A DNA stretch of 62,444 nucleotides, counting the filler. It is 6 parts of 6 records of this genome, joined end to end, with 100 filler letters (N's around TTAATTAATTAA, not from the genome) between each part and the next. Parts side by side here need not be neighbours in the genome. Positions count along the whole stretch, not along the records: positions 1 to 20,461 come from SRR20825006_2917; 5 more parts are not named here. The stretch is one strand, 5' to 3'. A program made the translations under genes and the position numbers. The notes beneath the pieces were generated by a model. That model was not told the DNA's origin and made no database searches. It saw only the letters and a program-made list of their open reading frames with translations. Positions 1 to 8,882 of the stretch are shown here, one piece after another (within the stretch, counting starts at the first letter, position 1; the number at the start of each line of letters is the position of its first letter).

Positions 1-70
1 CCTCGTGGGCTTGCCCCGAGGTAGTTGATTATCCCTCTTAATGCCTCGCAGTTTTTCCGCAAGGAGTTTA
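1..70 (-). repeat. REP-like / IS200-IS605-like hairpin repeat (one good copy at 1-30, degenerate copy at about 40-70), truncated by the contig end
   Basis: Reverse complement of 1-30 is AATCAACTACCTCGGGGCAAGCCCACGAGG, a bulged hairpin. It is 25/30 identical to 49776-49805 on another contig. Confidence 0.55.
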
Positions 71-967
71 CTTTTTTTTGTTTATTGAATTCTCTTTAGA
101 ACTCCATGGATATAATTCCTGATTTATAAATTTCTTCGGATATTCATCGTCATCATGAAAACCTAATTCAATATCCCTTCCGCTGTAAGGAATGTAATTA
201 GTTTTGAATATATAGTCCCATATACTCAATGTAATTCCGAAGTTAACCCCATATTTATTTGGCATTTCTTTACTATGATGCCAAATATGCATTTTAGGAT
301 TGTTTAAAATGTATTTAAACGGACCATAATCCCAACCAATATTTGCATGGTTTAGATGTCCAATAGTAATATTAAAAAAATGAACAATAGCCACTGCTTC
401 GATGTTATAACCTCCAATAATAGCAATAGGAAAGTATAAAATAGATTTATAAACTACTGGTTCCATCCAATGATAGCGAAAGTGAGCTGCAAATCCCATT
501 TCTTTTACGGAATGATGTGTTTTATGAAAATTCCAAAGAAATGGAATCCTGTGTAATAAAATATGTGTTCCCCATTGAATAAAATCGGCTACTATAAAAA
601 AGATAAATAGGCCTAATAACCAAGGTAGTTTTGAAGCATCAAAAAGTTGAAAATTAGAAAGTGAAGCTCCGAAAACATTTAGGAAATCATTAAAAATCTC
701 GGCTGCGGTATTGGATAGTGCAATTAATGCAATAAGATTTAATAAGAAAAAATTAAAGAAGAGATAGAAGGTATCTAACCAAAAATCTTCTCTAAAAATT
801 TTCTGATTTTTTCGCCAAGGAAATAAAATTTCGAGCCCCCAAATGGTGAAAGAAATAATGAGTAGTCCATAAAAGTAATTCTCCCAATGGAAGCTGGTAA
901 TTTCAGAAATCAGGTAATTAAAATATCCTGAATACGAATTTTTTATAATGTCGAAATACTTTTCCAA
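68..967 (-). CDS. Sterol desaturase / fatty acid hydroxylase family membrane di-iron protein
   Basis: His boxes HILLH, HKTHH, HLNH and HIWHH plus hydrophobic helices; TTG start. Confidence 0.9.
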   Translation of the reverse strand: MEKYFDIIKNSYSGYFNYLISEITSFHWENYFYGLLIISFTIWGLEILFPWRKNQKIFREDFWLDTFYLFFNFFLLNLIALIALSNTAAEIFNDFLNVFGASLSNFQLFDASKLPWLLGLFIFFIVADFIQWGTHILLHRIPFLWNFHKTHHSVKEMGFAAHFRYHWMEPVVYKSILYFPIAIIGGYNIEAVAIVHFFNITIGHLNHANIGWDYGPFKYILNNPKMHIWHHSKEMPNKYGVNFGITLSIWDYIFKTNYIPYSGRDIELGFHDDDEYPKKFINQELYPWSSKENSINKKK

Positions 968-1097
968 AGGATGCTCTTCTTAGCTTTTAAAATCTATTTT
1001 TATGATAAGGATTTTCCATAAAAAAGTCGGAATATTATTCAATAACTTACTTTTTAAAACATATGTTATTGGTTAGATTTTACTGTTAAGTTATAGT

Positions 1098-2066
1098 TTA
1101 ACAACATCCACCGCCGTCGTAATGCCAAGTAGATTCAGAAATAAAAATATCATTTCTCTCTAAATTTTTCAAGGTGTTAGCAGTTTTATCACAAACAGCA
1201 AGGGGTTGGTTTTGTAATAGAACATGTCCGTTTTTATCATCAAAATAATCCTCTTTACCGTAATAAATGGCAGCTTTTCCAGTAAAAACACAAGGGCCGT
1301 CTTTCGGCATTGGATCTTTTATGGCAGCCACTTCAATCGATTCAATGTAAATTAATTCTTCTGTATTGTAGTGCAATGGATCTAGAATTCTATATGGTTT
1401 TCTAGCTCTTATTTCGATGGTTCCAAAACCAGCATCGGTAAGCATTTTTACATATTCTTTTATAGGGAGGCTTCCACTTAAACACAATGCTCTAAGCTTA
1501 TCGTTGTTTCGGAGTTCCTCGCTCATTGGTTGCTCACAAGTGGGATCACTCATTACAAGTCGCCCATGTGGTTTTAAAACCCGATACATTTCTGAAATAG
1601 CCTTTTTTAATTCTTCAGTTTTAAAAATATTAAACAAACAATTTTGCGCTGCCACATCAATACTATTATCTGCAACAGGAAGGTGTAAAGCATCGCCTTT
1701 TTTTAAGTCTATAAAATCACTTTTAAACCAATTGTTTTGGGTTTCGGCTTCTTTAAAATTTTTACGAGAAGCTTCTAACATTTCATCTACAACATCTACA
1801 CCAATAACCCCATTTTTTTGACGAGAAAAATAAGCAAACTGTAAAAGTTCCATGCCTCCGCCTACACCAACATATAGAATTTTTGGATTGTTAACCAAAT
1901 CTCTTGGGTGTACAGTGCTCCCGCAACCATAGTTCATCTCTTGCATTATTTTCGGAATTTTTAATCCCGGTAATTCCCAAATAGGATTTGTGGTGCAACA
2001 AAGTCCAACATCTGGAGTTAAAGCAGCATTTTTATATACGTCTTTTGTAGTTTCTAAATAACTCAT
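1098..2066 (-). CDS. arsM: Arsenosugar-associated arsenite S-adenosylmethionine methyltransferase
   Basis: SAM motif LYVGVGGG, Cys motifs LCC, YGCG, SNC-like QNCLFN and C-terminal GGGCC; clustered with arsS. Confidence 0.85.
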   Translation of the reverse strand: MSYLETTKDVYKNAALTPDVGLCCTTNPIWELPGLKIPKIMQEMNYGCGSTVHPRDLVNNPKILYVGVGGGMELLQFAYFSRQKNGVIGVDVVDEMLEASRKNFKEAETQNNWFKSDFIDLKKGDALHLPVADNSIDVAAQNCLFNIFKTEELKKAISEMYRVLKPHGRLVMSDPTCEQPMSEELRNNDKLRALCLSGSLPIKEYVKMLTDAGFGTIEIRARKPYRILDPLHYNTEELIYIESIEVAAIKDPMPKDGPCVFTGKAAIYYGKEDYFDDKNGHVLLQNQPLAVCDKTANTLKNLERNDIFISESTWHYDGGGCC

Positions 2067-2878
2067 AGCTGCTTAATTAGTTTTTTGAAGAGTGTAATCA
2101 TTTTTGGTTCTGCTTCCCCGGCAATTCTAATAATTTCATTAATATCTACAGGTTCTAAATTATCTGGATCTCCTTCATCTGTAATTACAGAAATAGCGGC
2201 AACTGGCAGTTTTAAATGGTTGGCAACAATAACTTCTGGAACGGTACTCATTCCTACAGCATCGGCGCCAATAATTTTAAGGTATCTGTATTCCGCTTTT
2301 GTTTCTAATTGCGGACCAACTACCGAAACATACACCCCTTTTTGGAGGGAAATATTTTCTTGTTTTGCTGTGTTGATAATTGTATTTCTCATGTCAACGT
2401 CGTAGGGCTGACTCATATCCACAAATCGTTCTCCAAATTCGCTAACTCCTTTAAATGCTAGTGGAGAACCGCCTTGTAAATTAATATGGTCTTCAAGAAG
2501 CATTAAATCTCCTTTTTTATAATCTAAATTTATAGAGCCTGCAGCATTAGAAATAAGTAGTTTTTTAATTCCGAGTTCATGCATAGCACGAATTGGATAA
2601 GTAATATCAATAAAATCGTAACCTTCATACAGGTGAAAACGACCTTGCATAACCACTACTTTTTTACCTTCAATTTCACCATAAATTAATTTTCCGCTGT
2701 GGAATTCTACGGTAGCCAAAGGAAAAAATGGAATATGATTGTAATGAGCTACAATTGGATTTTCAATTTCATCTACCAATTTTCCTAGTCCAGTTCCTAA
2801 AACAATCCCAACTTCTGGAGCTTCAAAGCCCTTACTTTTTAAATATGCTGTTGTTTCTAGTAATTCGTTTTTGGTCAT
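2063..2878 (-). CDS. Purine nucleoside phosphorylase (trimeric PNP/MTAP family)
   Basis: Motifs GIVLGTGLG, MQGRFHLYEG, GPQLETKAE and GADAVGMSTVPE; its stop overlaps the arsM ATG (ATGA). Confidence 0.92.
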   Translation of the reverse strand: MTKNELLETTAYLKSKGFEAPEVGIVLGTGLGKLVDEIENPIVAHYNHIPFFPLATVEFHSGKLIYGEIEGKKVVVMQGRFHLYEGYDFIDITYPIRAMHELGIKKLLISNAAGSINLDYKKGDLMLLEDHINLQGGSPLAFKGVSEFGERFVDMSQPYDVDMRNTIINTAKQENISLQKGVYVSVVGPQLETKAEYRYLKIIGADAVGMSTVPEVIVANHLKLPVAAISVITDEGDPDNLEPVDINEIIRIAGEAEPKMITLFKKLIKQL

Positions 2879-2881
2879 AAT

Positions 2882-3490
2882 TTAATCTTTTAAAAATTTT
2901 TGAAATGCAGGATGTTCCTCAATATCTTCATACACATCCACATCATTAAGTTCTTCTAACAAAGCTACATTAATGGTTTTTAAATCTTCTAAAGTCTCTC
3001 TTAAAACAGTATCTGTGCCCCATTTTTTTTGTTGAAATATTTTAGGATACATTCTTTTTAAACCTAAAAGGTAATAACCTCCATCTGTAGCCGGTCCAAT
3101 TACCGCATCATAATTATTGAGTTTTTGGAAGGCTTCTTCAATGTGTTTTTCAGTAATATCGTACATATCACTACCAATAATTATTACATTTTGGTAACCT
3201 TCTTTGAAACTTTCGTCAAAAGCATGCATCATTCGTTCTCCGAGGTCACTACTACATTGCAGTTTTTTTTCAAAATGTTCTAGATTCCACAAATCTTTTT
3301 TCGGAATTTCTTCAGAATAATATACAACTTTATTACTGTTAACCCTTTTGGCAACTTTGGCGGTGTGTTCGAGTAAAAAAATGTATATCTCAAGGGCCTT
3401 TTTATCACCTATATCTTTAGCAAGTCTAGTTTTTACTTTTCCTAATTCTGGATTACGGATAAATATGATTAAAATATTTTTTTCTTTCAT
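2882..3490 (-). CDS. DUF2064/TIGR04282-type nucleotide-diphospho-sugar transferase-fold protein (arsenosugar-cluster associated, CofC-like)
   Basis: Motifs RNPELGKVKTRLA, DLGERM, IIIGSD, GPATDGGYYLLG and DVD. Confidence 0.85.
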   Translation of the reverse strand: MKEKNILIIFIRNPELGKVKTRLAKDIGDKKALEIYIFLLEHTAKVAKRVNSNKVVYYSEEIPKKDLWNLEHFEKKLQCSSDLGERMMHAFDESFKEGYQNVIIIGSDMYDITEKHIEEAFQKLNNYDAVIGPATDGGYYLLGLKRMYPKIFQQKKWGTDTVLRETLEDLKTINVALLEELNDVDVYEDIEEHPAFQKFLKD

Positions 3491-3506
3491 TTAAAAGCAC
3501 ATTATT

Positions 3507-4562
3507 TTAGACTACTGTTCCTTGGCAGCTACTTCCTGCGCCAGCAGTACAACCATAGCAATGTTGAGAGATAATAATATCTCTATTGTTTAAAATATCT
3601 TCATTGTACTCACTAACATGTTTTACTTTACTATCTACTTTGAGGTCGAGCATTTGGTTGAAGTCGCAATCATAAAGCCAACCATCCCAACTAATGGAAA
3701 TAGTATTGGTGCACATTACATTTTTTACTGCGGAAGGGTTAAAAGCTTCTACTAGGGAATACATATAATCTTCGTAGTTTTCTGAAGCGATGAGGTATTC
3801 CAAAAATCTAGAAATAGGAAGATTAGTAATGGCAAACAGATTGTGAAACTGAATTCCGAAATCGTCTATTAATGCTTTTTTGAAATCCTTTTCCATGGAG
3901 GCTTGATTGGTAGGTAAGAAAGCGCCAGCAGGATTGTAAACCAAATCCAGTTTTAAATTGCTATTCGGCATTCCGTAGCCAACAGCATTTAATTTTTTTA
4001 AAGCTTCTATTGATTTGTTAAAAACTCCCTGTCCGCGTTGTTTATCGGTCTTTTCTTTGGTCCAATGTGGCATGGAAGAAATTACATGGATATTGTGTTT
4101 TTTAAAAAAATCTGGAAGGTCGTTGTATTTTTTGTTCGCTTCAATAATGGTAAGGTTGCTTCGTACAATAAAATCTTCCACTCCAATTTTGGAAGCCTCC
4201 TCTACAAACCATCGGAAATTAGGATTCATTTCTGGAGCTCCTCCAGTTAAATCTAGCGTATGAGCCCCCGTATTTTTTATAATATCTAGACATTGTTGCA
4301 TGGTTTCCTTTGTCATTATTTCCTTACGGTCGGGGCCTGCATCTACATGGCAATGGGAGCATACTTGGTTGCACATATATCCCACATTAATTTGTAGGAT
4401 TTCTGTTTTATTTGGACGAAGCGGAAACTGATTTGTCTCTGCAATTTTGTCTTTAAAAGTAGGTAGTTCTCCATTCGCAAAAATTCCATTAGAAAGTATT
4501 TCTAATTGCTTTTTCGATTGAGAAAGTTGGTTTGCTCGTTTATGTAACGATTTTTTTAGCAT
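3507..4562 (-). CDS. arsS: Arsenosugar biosynthesis radical SAM enzyme
   Basis: CNQVCSHC radical SAM motif, DLTGGAPE, YDCDFNQML and Cys-rich C-terminus HCYGCTAGAGSSC. Confidence 0.9.
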   Translation of the reverse strand: MLKKSLHKRANQLSQSKKQLEILSNGIFANGELPTFKDKIAETNQFPLRPNKTEILQINVGYMCNQVCSHCHVDAGPDRKEIMTKETMQQCLDIIKNTGAHTLDLTGGAPEMNPNFRWFVEEASKIGVEDFIVRSNLTIIEANKKYNDLPDFFKKHNIHVISSMPHWTKEKTDKQRGQGVFNKSIEALKKLNAVGYGMPNSNLKLDLVYNPAGAFLPTNQASMEKDFKKALIDDFGIQFHNLFAITNLPISRFLEYLIASENYEDYMYSLVEAFNPSAVKNVMCTNTISISWDGWLYDCDFNQMLDLKVDSKVKHVSEYNEDILNNRDIIISQHCYGCTAGAGSSCQGTVV

Positions 4563-4756
4563 GTTGATATGTTAGCGTATAATGTCTTTTAAAATTGTCC
4601 TGTAAAGGAAATAAGCCTTACATTTTAGAGTTGTAAAGTTATGAAGTTACGTTGTTACACAGTACAGCTACTGCTAGAGAAGTTGTAGCAGATTCATATT
4701 TTTGAAAAATATAACCCTTAATTCCGTAATAACAACTAACAATCCATATTTTACAA

Positions 4757-5092
4757 TTACATGGACAACTTATCGTATTTCTTCATCATTTGAACCCCAT
4801 GGACCAAAGTAGCGCCACTCTCAATAGCAGCTCCAGCATGCACGGCTTCCATCATTTCTTCTTTAGTAATCCCTCTTTGGAGACCGTCTTTTGTATATGC
4901 ATCTATGCAATATGGGCATTTTACAACATGAGATACTGCTAATGCAATTAAAGACTTCTCTCTGGCTGTAAGAGCTCCTTCTTCAAAAACTTTTCCGTAG
5001 TAATCAAAAAATTTTTCTCCTAACTCCTCACTCCATTCTGTTATTTTAGGGAATTTTTTTAAATCTGCTGGGTCGTAATATGTCTTTTCCAT
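4757..5092 (-). CDS. Carboxymuconolactone decarboxylase/AhpD-like protein associated with arsS
   Basis: REKSLIALAV and a CPYC redox motif; lies upstream of arsS. Confidence 0.85.
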   Translation of the reverse strand: MEKTYYDPADLKKFPKITEWSEELGEKFFDYYGKVFEEGALTAREKSLIALAVSHVVKCPYCIDAYTKDGLQRGITKEEMMEAVHAGAAIESGATLVHGVQMMKKYDKLSM

Positions 5093-5231
5093 AGTTTAAT
5101 TGAGTATAAATATTGATTTTGTGAAATCCTAGTAGTATTGGACGTTTTTATTGCTATTTCTTACAAGAGAAAAATATTAAATTGTAATTTAGTTGCATAA
5201 GTAAAAGTAAAAGAAATAAAGAGATTCTAAG

Positions 5232-6011
5232 ATGAAGAAAGGATTTTTAATTGATATGGATGGTGTAATTTATGGTAATGACACCTTAATTCCTGGCGCT
5301 GATAAATTTATAAAAACATTGCAAAAAGAGAATATCCCTTTTTTGTTTATGACCAATAATAGTCAGCGTACCCCTTTAGACACAGTAAATAAAGTGGCGA
5401 GGATGGGGATAAAAATAAAAGAAGAAAACGTCTATACAAGCGCAATGGCTACGGCTTATTTTTTATCTTTTATGAACCCAAACGGAACAGCTTATGTTTT
5501 AGGTGAAGGTGGATTAATAAGCAGTTTACATCAACACGGATATACATTAGTAAATCAAAATCCAGATTTTGTGGTGGTTGGAGAAGGAAGAAACTTCACT
5601 TTAGAAATGGTAAACAATGCAGTAGATATGATCCTCTCAGGAGCAAAATTAATAGCTACCAATTTAGATCCATCTCCTATGAAAAAGGGATGGTCTAATT
5701 TAGGAATAAAAGCTATTGTTGCCATGATTGAAGAAGCTACTGGAAAAAAAGCTTTTTCTGTAGGGAAACCGAGCCCCGTAATGATGCGTTCTGCAAGAAA
5801 GTATCTAGGTTTAGAAGCTCGAGAGACTATTATAATTGGAGATACAATGGATACCGATATTTTAGGAGGTGTCCAATTAGGATATACTACTATTTTGACG
5901 CTTTCTGGAGTTTCTAAAGAAAACGATTTAAACGATTATGCATTTAAACCAGATTTGATAATAAATTCTGTTGCGGAGCTAGATTTAAAAAAGGCTTTGG
6001 AACTTCAATAG
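5232..6011 (+). CDS. HAD-IIA family hydrolase (NagD-like)
   Basis: Motifs DMDGVI, TNNS, GKPS and GDTMDTDILGG. Confidence 0.9.
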   Translation: MKKGFLIDMDGVIYGNDTLIPGADKFIKTLQKENIPFLFMTNNSQRTPLDTVNKVARMGIKIKEENVYTSAMATAYFLSFMNPNGTAYVLGEGGLISSLHQHGYTLVNQNPDFVVVGEGRNFTLEMVNNAVDMILSGAKLIATNLDPSPMKKGWSNLGIKAIVAMIEEATGKKAFSVGKPSPVMMRSARKYLGLEARETIIIGDTMDTDILGGVQLGYTTILTLSGVSKENDLNDYAFKPDLIINSVAELDLKKALELQ

Positions 6012-6090: not shown

Positions 6091-7422
6091 ATGAGTAAAG
6101 TATTACAATGGGCCATCATCATCTCGCTTGGTGGTTTTTTATTTGGTTTTGATACCGCAGTAATTTCTGGAGCAGAACAATCAATACAGCAAACATGGGG
6201 TTTAAGCGACTTGATGCATGGTTTTGCAATTGCAGTTGCGCTTTACGGTACATTAATAGGAGCTATTTTTGGAGGATTTCCTTCGGATAAATATGGAAGA
6301 AGAAAAACCCTTTTTTGGATTGCAATTTTGTTTCTCGTATCGGCCATAGGTTCAGCTTTAGCATTAGATATATACTCCTTTGTAATCTTTAGATTTATTG
6401 GAGGAATTGCTGTTGGAGCATCCTCTGTAACAGCGCCTATTTATATTTCAGAAATTTCTCAAGCGCAAAATAGAGGGAAATTAGTAGCGTCTTTTCAATT
6501 AAATCTAGTTTTAGGTATTTTAATGGCTTATGTGTCTAATTATGTTATTAGCTTACTAAATTTAGAAAATGCTTGGAGATGGATGTTGGGAGTAGAAGCA
6601 ATTCCAGCTTTAGCTTTTGCACTTTTAGTAAGAAAACTCCCAAGAAGCCCAAGGTGGGTGTTGTTAAAACACAATGCCGAAGAAGAAGCACTACAGACTT
6701 TAAAATTAATTAATAATGATAATTATGAAGCGGAATTACAGGAAATAAAAGCCTCCGCAGCAATGGATGCAACTAAAACATCACTTAAAGAAAGGTTTTT
6801 ATCTAAGAAATATAGTTTTGTTATTCTCTTGGCATTCTTATTTGCATTTTTTAATCAGCTTTCAGGAATTAACTCTGTAATTTATTATGCACCAAGAATA
6901 TTTAGAGATGCTGGGCTGGGGAGCGAATCTTCAATGTTTTCTACGGTAGGAATTGGGATTATAAATTTAATATTTACCCTTGTTGGAATGTATCTAATAG
7001 ATAGAAGCGGACGAAAAAAGCTTATGTATATTGGTTCTATCGGGTATATTATTTCGTTATTTTTTATAGGAAGAGCTTTTGATACAGGAAATACTGAAGG
7101 GAGCATAGTGCCTATATTATCATTTATATTTATTGCATCTCATGCTATTGGTCAAGGAGCTGTAATTTGGGTTTTTATTTCTGAAATATTCCCAAATAAA
7201 GTAAGAGCTTACGGAATGTCTTTAGGAAGTTCTACACATTGGATTTTTGCAGCATTGATAACAAACTTTTTCCCTTACTTTACAGAAGTTGTAGGGCCAG
7301 CGCCAATATTCTATTTCTTTGCTGGAATGATGATTTTACAATTGTTATTTGTAATCTTTTTAATGCCAGAAACAAAGGGAAAATCTCTTGAGGATTTGTC
7401 GAAATCACTTTTGAAAAAGTAA
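6091..7422 (+). CDS. MFS sugar porter family transporter
   Basis: GGFLFGFDTAVISG, DKYGRR, PRSPRW, NQLSGINSVIYY, PETKG; about 12 TM segments. Confidence 0.93.
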   Translation: MSKVLQWAIIISLGGFLFGFDTAVISGAEQSIQQTWGLSDLMHGFAIAVALYGTLIGAIFGGFPSDKYGRRKTLFWIAILFLVSAIGSALALDIYSFVIFRFIGGIAVGASSVTAPIYISEISQAQNRGKLVASFQLNLVLGILMAYVSNYVISLLNLENAWRWMLGVEAIPALAFALLVRKLPRSPRWVLLKHNAEEEALQTLKLINNDNYEAELQEIKASAAMDATKTSLKERFLSKKYSFVILLAFLFAFFNQLSGINSVIYYAPRIFRDAGLGSESSMFSTVGIGIINLIFTLVGMYLIDRSGRKKLMYIGSIGYIISLFFIGRAFDTGNTEGSIVPILSFIFIASHAIGQGAVIWVFISEIFPNKVRAYGMSLGSSTHWIFAALITNFFPYFTEVVGPAPIFYFFAGMMILQLLFVIFLMPETKGKSLEDLSKSLLKK

Positions 7423-7633
7423 AATGTTATGTAAGTATTGGAGCGTTAAACTTTGATTATCGAGCAAAAAGCATTTATAAATTTAAAGAAGTACATTTTT
7501 AGTGTTAAATAAGCTGAAAAATTTAATCTAATCTTTTGTTTTTGGTTAACTTAACCATTATTATTGGAGGTGTAAATTGCCTTGATGTATTAAATACCAA
7601 TTGCCGAGTCAATAAGAAAACGAAGTGTCAATT

Positions 7634-7873
7634 ATGAATATTTTACTTTTTGGGATCACAAGAGAGATAGTTGGAGATGCTTCTTTATATATTTCTGCGG
7701 AAGAAAAAATAAAAACTGTACAGCAGCTTAGGCTTTTTCTGATGGAGCAGTATCCAGCACTCAAAAAACTTTCTTCGTTGGCAATTGCTGTAAATAATAA
7801 GTATGCGCAAGAAGAAGATAATATCACAATTGATGATGAAATTGCACTGATTCCTCCAGTTAGTGGCGGATGA
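7634..7873 (+). CDS. moaD: Molybdopterin synthase sulfur carrier
   Basis: Ubiquitin-like size with C-terminal PPVSGG; first gene of the Moco cluster. Confidence 0.9.
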   Translation: MNILLFGITREIVGDASLYISAEEKIKTVQQLRLFLMEQYPALKKLSSLAIAVNNKYAQEEDNITIDDEIALIPPVSGG

Positions 7874-7898
7874 TTTTATGAAGCTATTAAAAAATTAT

Positions 7899-8882
7899 AT
7901 GTTAATAGACAACCATAATAGAGTTATAAATTATTTAAGATTGGCGGTTACAGACCGTTGCAATTTACGTTGCAATTATTGTATGCCAGAAGAAGGGATT
8001 GATTTTGCAAAGCGCAAAGATTTATTTTCAATGGAGGAGCTTTGTAGGTTGAGTAGTATAATGGTTTCTCAAGGGATTAATAAAATTAGATTAACAGGCG
8101 GGGAGCCTTTTGTTAGAAAAGATTTAATGGTTTTATTTCGTCATTTAGCTTCTTTAGAAGGTTTAGACGATATTTCTGTTACTACCAATGCTACTTTAAT
8201 TGGACCCTATATAAACGAATTAAAGTCCTTAGGAATAAAAAACATCAATGTAAGTTTAGATGCTATAAATAAAGATGTTTTTGAGAGAATAACCAGAAGA
8301 AATCAGTATGAAACGGTTTATGAAAACCTTATAAAATTGATTTCTGAAGGTTTTAATGTGCGGATTAATTGTATTGCCTTAGAGGGGCAGAATATTGAAG
8401 AGATTATTCCATTAGTAGAACTCACAAAATATTACAATGTCTCAGTTCGGTTTTTGGAAGAAATGCCTTTTAATGGAGGTTCAAAAAGCTTCAATACTAT
8501 TAAATGGGACTATAAAGCTATTTATGAGCATATTGCCAATCGTTTTGATGCGATTGAAAAATTAGTTTCAGAAAAAACATCTACCTCTATAAATTATAAA
8601 ATCAAAGATTATAAAGGAACTTTTGGGCTTATCCCGTCTTTTTCGAGAACATTTTGCGGAAGTTGCAATCGCCTACGGATTTCTGCTACTGGAGATGTTA
8701 TTACTTGCCTGTACGGAAAACCAAGGATGAATATTAGAACCCTATTAAGAAGTGAAAATTCAGAAGAAAAAATAAAACAACATATTCTAGCAACCATAGG
8801 AAGTCGTTCTAAAACAGGCTTTGAAGAACAAGAAAAATACAAAGGTGTTTTTAATAATTCGATGACCTCAATTGGAGGGTAG
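7899..8882 (+). CDS. moaA: GTP 3',8-cyclase
   Basis: CNLRCNYC, LTGGEP, FCGSCNRLR...C and a C-terminal GG. The start may instead be 7878. Confidence 0.93.
   Translation: MLIDNHNRVINYLRLAVTDRCNLRCNYCMPEEGIDFAKRKDLFSMEELCRLSSIMVSQGINKIRLTGGEPFVRKDLMVLFRHLASLEGLDDISVTTNATLIGPYINELKSLGIKNINVSLDAINKDVFERITRRNQYETVYENLIKLISEGFNVRINCIALEGQNIEEIIPLVELTKYYNVSVRFLEEMPFNGGSKSFNTIKWDYKAIYEHIANRFDAIEKLVSEKTSTSINYKIKDYKGTFGLIPSFSRTFCGSCNRLRISATGDVITCLYGKPRMNIRTLLRSENSEEKIKQHILATIGSRSKTGFEEQEKYKGVFNNSMTSIGG

Follow-up and report, generated by a model that had tools for sequence, protein, structure and literature searches.

Among the organoarsenicals of marine food webs, arsenosugars predominate, and to our knowledge only the first two enzymes of their biosynthesis, ArsM and ArsS, have been characterised. 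Here we describe an arsenosugar operon with an inserted gene for a purine nucleoside phosphorylase (PNP), found in the part derived from record SRR20825006_2917 of a window of 62,444 nt (the whole stretch of DNA analysed). It consists of five co-oriented open reading frames (ORFs) on the minus strand, encoding a CMD-like protein, ArsS, a DUF2064 (TIGR04282) protein, the PNP and ArsM (Table 1). The CMD and ArsS genes are separated by 194 nt, ArsS and DUF2064 by 16 nt, and DUF2064 and PNP by 3 nt (TAA att ATG), and the PNP stop codon overlaps the ArsM start in an ATGA; the co-orientation and the last three junctions had been given in an earlier, sequence-only reading of this DNA, and proved exact when the junctions were read again.

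Four of the five proteins pass NCBIfam "arsenosugar biosynthesis" models (TIGR04167, NF038099, TIGR04169 and TIGR04282, all above cut-off and adjacent within the array), so the operon is of a known, annotated kind: it represents the catalogued ArsM/ArsS gene set for arsenosugars in a reduced, flavobacterial form. The first protein, whose family TIGR04169 is named ‘arsenosugar biosynthesis-associated peroxidase-like protein’, shows the CPYC motif in its translation, and its gene adjoins ArsS in 35 of 40 ArsS loci that we sampled across the phylum and in 41 of 80 loci drawn from a diverse, cross-phylum ArsS profile. The ArsS translation shows the cluster motif CNQVCSHCH and a C-terminal HCYGCTAGAGSSC. 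A promoter and terminator scan of positions 1-5400 was uninformative on the limits of the operon, yielding 22 promoter-like signals vs 23.0 in shuffled sequence and 3 terminator-like signals vs 3.4, with a consensus that may not suit this lineage.

Table 1. Genes of the operon and of its surroundings, in window positions; cut-offs in parentheses.
Feature	Position	Strand	Basis
AhpD/CMD-like protein with CxxC (CPYC), encoded first in the array	4757-5092	-	TIGR04169 193.7 bits (120), PF02627
ArsS, radical SAM enzyme, Cys form (no selenoprotein)	3507-4562	-	TIGR04167 442.4 bits (300), PF04055 and PF12345
TIGR04282/DUF2064, CofC-like nucleotidyltransferase-fold protein	2882-3490	-	TIGR04282 220 bits (134), PF09837, weaker CofC match
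Type A PNP homologue with MTAP-like specificity residues	2063-2878	-	NF006054 338.3 bits (218)
Arsenosugar-type arsenite methyltransferase ArsM	1098-2066	-	NF038099 581.3 bits (400)
Membrane protein of the fatty acid hydroxylase/sterol desaturase family, following ArsM at 130 nt	68-967	-	PF04116 94.6 bits
HAD-IIA (NagD-like) phosphatase	5232-6011	+	
Sugar-porter MFS transporter	6091-7422	+	
Small ORF overlapping the next	7625-7873	+	
MoaA-like radical SAM ORF	7863-8882	+	Translation; weak 23-bit ArsS match

The product of ArsS is established as 5'-dimethylarsinoyl-5'-deoxyadenosine (DDMAA), as stated in PMC13598754, and PMC10456119, a review, again invokes a hypothetical "adenosyl nucleosidase". 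We found no enzyme named for the removal of adenine in the literature covered, some of it available in part and with subscription papers outside the coverage. Searches for papers combining arsenosugars, ArsS and a phosphorylase returned none, those on the PNP structures 8SWT and 8SWU returned nothing, and those on DDMAA and on TIGR04282, TIGR04283 or DUF2064 returned nothing on the steps after ArsS.

In addition to the model in Table 1, the PNP passes TIGR01697 (292.9 bits; cut-off 197.1) and, marginally, TIGR01700 (298.4; 293.35), and fails the 5'-methylthioadenosine phosphorylase (MTAP) model TIGR01694 (110.1 bits vs 274.85). Its residues at the specificity positions are, in its own numbering, Asp234, Ile246, Leu191, Phe59 and Ile249. 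Asp234, within ISVITD, occupies the column of the canonical Asn (Asn243 in human PNP) in 8SWU and in PNPs of the Asn/His type (L094 and L105), and Ile246 aligns with the His of the NHEEV/SHEEV motif (human His257), both in the alignment to 8SWU and in the PNP comparisons. The equivalents of Asn243 and His257, two hallmarks of the inosine/guanosine PNPs (TIGR01700, human-type), are absent; the Asp and Ile of the window PNP align with Asp and Val/Ala of two MTAPs from arsenosugar clusters, that is, with the MTAP-type combination of Asp and a hydrophobic residue. We take these two columns to be the pocket for the base and the 5'-alkylthio group in human MTAP. In human PNP, according to PMC4308819, the purine is held by a bidentate contact from Asn243 and the 5'-OH by one from His257, and the double mutant E201Q:N243D gains cleavage of adenosine analogues (PMC2799393).

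We extended this comparison to 151 Flavobacteriaceae genomes, approximately one per genus. A protein search gave 129 matches with at least 50% identity to the window PNP (type A; about 72 of these assignments are based on identity alone) and 8 with 46-49% (type B), the same split as in Table 2. Among full-length type A sequences, the residues listed there for the His257, Phe200 and Val260 positions were found in 60/60, 60/60 and 59/60 cases, respectively. Two canonical PNPs, which lie near ArsS by chance in other lineages, carry Asn/His/(Phe or Tyr). In the phylogenetic tree that had been suggested alongside the sequence-only reading, built here with FastTree, type A formed a single, Bacteroidota-only clade (support 0.71). 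The changes in the 5' pocket are specific to type A, and the Asp is lineage-wide. The type A enzyme is a PNP by descent, and we infer that its PNP fold was reshaped for a specificity like that of MTAP: the Asp is of the adenine type, and the 5' pocket is larger and aliphatic.

Table 2. Two types of PNP compared with the window PNP (human numbering).
Property	Type A	Type B
Sequences compared	window PNP, 57 from the family, 7 from further Bacteroidota families	8 (same family)
Identity to window PNP	50-100%	45-49%
Asn243 position	Asp	Asp
His257 position	Ile/Val/Leu	His
Phe200 position	Leu	Phe
Val260 position	Ile	Val
Gate loop (244-256)	ECDPDNLxP	VSHEEV region

Among the 151 genomes, 118 carry ArsS and 136 carry a PNP, as a single copy in 135 of the latter (the exception being G050). 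Where both genes occur (117 genomes), most genomes (78/117) have the PNP gene on the ArsS strand, no more than 3 kb downstream, and 13 more have it 8.6-9.9 kb downstream; in the remainder it lies nearby on the opposite strand (2), more than 300 kb away (10) or on another contig (14). This frequency, together with the conservation of the array in a 98.9%-identical genome (G001), supports that the arrangement is more than chance. In the 24 split clusters, that is, those in which ArsS is over 300 kb off or on another contig, the PNP gene directly follows TIGR04282 in 24/24 and is itself followed by ArsM in 19/24, and no ArsS was found in the fetched flanks of PNP, so the closest partner of the PNP is TIGR04282 rather than ArsS. 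Across several Bacteroidota families and two gene orders, type A PNP adjoins TIGR04282 in 58 of the 69 type A loci checked; type B PNPs had no ars linkage in 8/8 cases. The clusters with an 8.6-9.9 kb distance have two TIGR04282-like genes in each of the six loci fetched, and in L053 (4505-11868), the one locus of the 13 that was annotated, genes for a SusC/RagA receptor, a symporter-like protein and others lie between a partial TIGR04282 copy beside ArsS and a rhodanese-TIGR04282-PNP unit.

Outside the family, a type A PNP was present in the cluster in 3/12 phylum-level loci that belong to the same class but to other families. In the 80 cross-phylum loci we found full-length type A PNP in 4 and, in a fifth, a fragment of 83 aa; all of these are among the 21 loci that we assigned to Bacteroidota by their record titles. 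Some of these families use the alternative order ArsS-PNP-TIGR04282-GT2 (type A PNP loci L065-L067, L123, L151, L171 and L174), and this difference in gene order indicates that the adjacency is more than frozen synteny. CMD-ArsS or ArsM-ArsS is the core of the cluster throughout, and a linked phosphorylase is a minority feature.

A different phosphorylase occupies the same place on some proteobacterial replicons. A tblastn search of plasmid records with ArsS gave matches in six organism groups, five of which we examined. On Burkholderia glumae bglu_2p, a tight MTAP-TIGR04283-TIGR04282 array and arsS are 6 kb apart; an Acinetobacter portensis plasmid carries, beyond arsS, TIGR04283-TIGR04282-methyltransferase with a convergent mtnP, next to which is a gene for a ‘sterol desaturase family protein’; and a Cupriavidus replicon carries ArsM-ArsS and, further on, GT2-TIGR04282-MTAP. 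The Burkholderia and Acinetobacter proteins pass TIGR01694 (312-315 bits vs 274.85), and the Cupriavidus one was assigned by phmmer (241 bits). No phosphorylase was detected near arsS on the Hymenobacter and Pseudanabaena plasmids, and no MTAP within about 10 kb of ArsS in any of 120 chromosomal loci (L063-L182); the linkage was thus limited to three replicons of the plasmid collection, where MTAP abuts TIGR04283/TIGR04282 and not arsS. These alignments and gene orders point to genuine MTAPs having been recruited independently to this place in the cluster on the three proteobacterial replicons.

The genes that accompany TIGR04282 bear on what the phosphorylase may deliver. TIGR04283, a glycosyltransferase family 2 (GT2) protein, matched in 106/151 family genomes at E <= 1e-40, 104 of them above the cut-off; none was found in the window, and the best match in G001 reached 44.1 bits vs a cut-off of 182. 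Three genomes encode fusions of TIGR04283 with TIGR04282, between them in both domain orders (L085 7019-8302, L098 6990-8354 and L166 10965-12299), and in L076 and L099 TIGR04282 has long extra regions with no NCBIfam match at E <= 1e-8. Relatives often have a protein of 164 aa with a rhodanese domain (184-203 bits for NF045521 ‘rhoda_near_glyco’), encoded between ArsS and TIGR04282 in L058, L060 and L061; we did not find its gene in the window or in a 20-kb stretch of G001. In the ArsS-less genome G002, the order is rhodanese-TIGR04282-type A PNP-256-aa protein-TIGR04283 (L011 3444-9479), and upstream lie genes for an ADP-ribosylglycohydrolase-like protein and for an MtnK-like kinase (129.5 bits for TIGR01767, under its cut-off); this locus appears to be a module for 5-substituted riboses that operates in the absence of ArsS. 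Both the fusions and the MtnK-like neighbour fit a ribose-1-phosphate intermediate. The only solved relative of TIGR04282 is 3CGX, a ‘putative nucleotide-diphospho-sugar transferase’.

We consider it moderately probable that the PNP phosphorolyses DDMAA, freeing it of adenine, and passes the sugar-1-phosphate to TIGR04282, while also clearing nucleosides of the 5'-deoxyadenosine type. The type A PNP would convert DDMAA to adenine and 5-deoxy-5-dimethylarsinoyl-alpha-D-ribose-1-phosphate. A sugar-1-phosphate is the kind of substrate that CofC-like nucleotidyltransferases use, and TIGR04282 would accordingly make a nucleoside diphosphate (NDP)-arsenoribose, from which, in most relatives, the TIGR04283 GT2 would transfer the arsenoribose to an acceptor. 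PNPs and such GT2 classes generally invert the anomeric centre; if both do so here, the product would be a beta-riboside, as in natural arsenosugars. The sequence-only reading had likewise proposed phosphorolysis feeding a CofC-like partner, and had suggested that the CPYC protein keeps arsenic or the thiols of the enzymes reduced. The phosphorolysis proposal is supported in part, by the MTAP-like residues, the tight linkage to TIGR04282 and the proteobacterial MTAPs in the same place, all of them comparative or sequence evidence; the co-occurrence survey that it suggested found linkage in most family genomes with both genes and a linked phosphorylase rarely outside Flavobacteriaceae.

Several observations weigh against a PNP that serves arsenosugar synthesis in particular. 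In the phylum-level sample a phosphorylase was linked to ArsS in 0/28 loci of other classes, and in the cross-phylum sample none was linked in 16/21 Bacteroidota-titled loci nor in any of the other 59. Among 24 long ArsS homologues, selected by length from the best 150 of 4515, we could not detect a fusion to a phosphorylase or to TIGR04282. The Glu at the human Glu201 position is kept (read from the motif GPQLETKAE). An operon-specific adaptation by the Asp was considered and rejected, because this residue is present in type B PNPs of ArsS-less genomes, and support for the type A clade is moderate. Genome-wide statements rest on G001 as a stand-in, with 98.9% identity over the first 12 kb and the same array. 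There, PF01048 proteins number two, the window-type PNP and a 291-aa uridine-phosphorylase-like protein, so that the operon PNP is the sole trimeric PNP; the 62-kb window likewise holds no second PNP. MtnN was not found in G001 either. The sequence-only reading had assumed a dedicated enzyme and had named its being the only housekeeping PNP of the genome as counting against the proposal, and this is the case in G001. MtnN was found in 8/151 family genomes (6/7 with type B only, G050 with both types, and 1/128 with type A only), leaving 127/128 type-A-only genomes without it, and an MTAP-like site in such genomes is explicable by a general clearance of 5'-deoxyadenosine. Type A PNP is also kept in 12/33 ArsS-less family genomes, nine of them without an ars neighbour, and in the congener G044 it is still in place after loss of CMD-ArsS-TIGR04282, ArsM-FAH (fatty acid hydroxylase) and the MFS gene. 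Taken together, the sole trimeric PNP, the absence of MtnN and the retention after ars loss indicate that there is no dedicated extra copy and that the enzyme has a housekeeping role alongside; the same PNP probably clears 5'-deoxyadenosine-type nucleosides for the whole cell.

The main rival to DDMAA phosphorolysis takes this housekeeping role as the whole function: the type A PNP would be the 5'-deoxyadenosine/adenosine phosphorylase of the lineage, replacing MtnN, with adenine removed from DDMAA elsewhere, and its place in the operon would be explained by ArsS, like every radical S-adenosylmethionine (SAM) enzyme, being inhibited by 5'-deoxyadenosine. The single trimeric PNP of G001, the near-complementary distribution of MtnN and the survival of PNP after ars gene loss in G044 and eight other genomes are all as it predicts. 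However, in split clusters the PNP gene has kept TIGR04282/ArsM, and in no case ArsS, as its neighbour (24/24), while rhodanese-TIGR04282-PNP-x-TIGR04283 persists in three ArsS-less genomes and the plasmid MTAP abuts TIGR04283/TIGR04282; that PNP tracks TIGR04282 counts against clearance as the sole function. Moreover, MtnA, needed for onward salvage, was not found in G001. We consider this explanation unlikely. Classic salvage of 5'-methylthioadenosine as the purpose of the PNP, a further candidate, is weakened, as neither MtnA nor spermidine synthase was found in G001.

A second alternative, which we hold to be very unlikely, is that the late module (TIGR04282 and PNP, joined in relatives by rhodanese and TIGR04283) acts on non-arsenical 5-substituted riboses, the ‘arsenosugar’ label covering one input. 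The module does occur without ArsS in G002, G106 and G144, and the G002 copy has the MtnK-like and ADP-ribosylglycohydrolase-like neighbours described above; against it, ArsS is also present in 117/129 type A genomes, ArsM directly follows PNP here and in most relatives, and no non-arsenical product is known. That an ordinary purine-salvage PNP hitch-hikes by inherited synteny, with no tie to arsenic metabolism, is highly improbable: it passes curated PNP models including the inosine/guanosine-type TIGR01700 and is nearly always single-copy, but the canonical Asn and His are both substituted, the linkage outlasts changes of gene order across Bacteroidota families, MTAP was analogously recruited in proteobacterial clusters, and the canonical-looking type B PNP of the same family is never ars-linked.

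DDMAA phosphorolysis could also be one case of something wider. Together with rhodanese and TIGR04283 where relatives have them, the TIGR04282-PNP pair might form a general and so far undescribed route from 5'-substituted adenosines through NDP-5-substituted riboses to glycosides, taking in DDMAA but also 5'-deoxyadenosine or similar by-products of radical SAM or SAM chemistry, having arsenosugars as one output and replacing the known salvage or disposal in MtnN-less Bacteroidota; we regard this extension as quite improbable.

The surroundings of the operon include a possible further member. The sterol desaturase family gene downstream of ArsM is possibly a sixth gene of the operon or of the pathway; its homologues follow ArsM or sit in ArsS clusters in several Flavobacteriaceae loci, and recur in ArsS clusters of Pedobacter, Pyrinomonadaceae and Planctomycetota (7/80 cross-phylum loci). 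The phosphatase and sugar transporter genes are divergent from the operon; the former is still beside PNP in G044, from which the ars genes were lost, and an MFS gene also abuts CMD in L060. Beyond them, the MoaA-like ORF is apparently unrelated to the operon. ArsS itself was found fused to ArsM in both orders (P0024, P0039, P0043, P0056, P0062, P0077 and P0114), to a CMD domain (P0032), to a flavin reductase (P0047) and to a VTT/TVP38 membrane domain (P0121), and genes for TVP38 and an FAD-oxidoreductase flank arsS on the Pseudanabaena and Acinetobacter plasmids.

The 5'-pocket signature of type A, the complementarity with MtnN, the behaviour of split clusters and the confirmation of an MTAP linkage on plasmids are new here. 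The resemblance of its active site to that of MTAP makes the PNP a directly testable candidate for the adenine-removal step on the arsenic nucleoside. Should the roles proposed for PNP and TIGR04282 hold, two or three missing steps could be assayed with purified proteins, many ArsS-bearing marine Flavobacteriaceae (118/151 genera sampled) would be candidate bacterial sources of arsenosugars, and the PNP scaffold would offer a clear case of convergence on MTAP specificity.

Compared with the NCBIfam arsenosugar set, the operon has the same ArsS, AhpD-like, TIGR04282 and ArsM proteins, all over the curated cut-offs, but differs in the PNP inserted between TIGR04282 and ArsM, which no curated arsenosugar model scored, and in that TIGR04283 was not found in G001. 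Its TIGR04282 protein shares the fold family of the 2-phospho-L-lactate guanylyltransferase CofC/FbiD, at the level of a weak match (TIGR03552 37.3 and PF01983 37.4 bits), and the proposed logic is the same, a phosphomonoester and a nucleoside triphosphate giving an NDP-linked product; however, it scores far under the CofC cut-off (105), and NCBIfam names TIGR04282 a putative glycosyltransferase. With MTAP/MtnP (TIGR01694) the window PNP shares the trimeric NP-I fold family, the Asp at the base column and an aliphatic residue where PNP has its 5'-OH-binding His, but it is about 21-23% identical to the cluster MTAPs and keeps Glu (GPQLETKAE) where they have Ser (GPAFSTLAE). Akin to canonical trimeric PNPs (human/calf, PunA, 8SWU-like) and type B (8SWT-like), it keeps the phosphate and ribose motifs GTGLG, RFHxYEG and VGMSTVPEV, and differs from the canonical enzymes by Asp for Asn243 (as also in type B), Ile for His257, Leu for Phe200, Ile for Val260, Phe for Gly before the His of the His64 region, and the 244-256 gate loop ECDPDNLxP. 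The best solved match is PDB 4LNA, a structural-genomics entry named ‘purine nucleoside phosphorylase’ (E 1.8e-83), which has the same Asp and carries Leu in the columns of both His257 and Phe200 (GPQLETRAE); since it carries these type-A-like residues, a structure of a type-A-like enzyme already exists.

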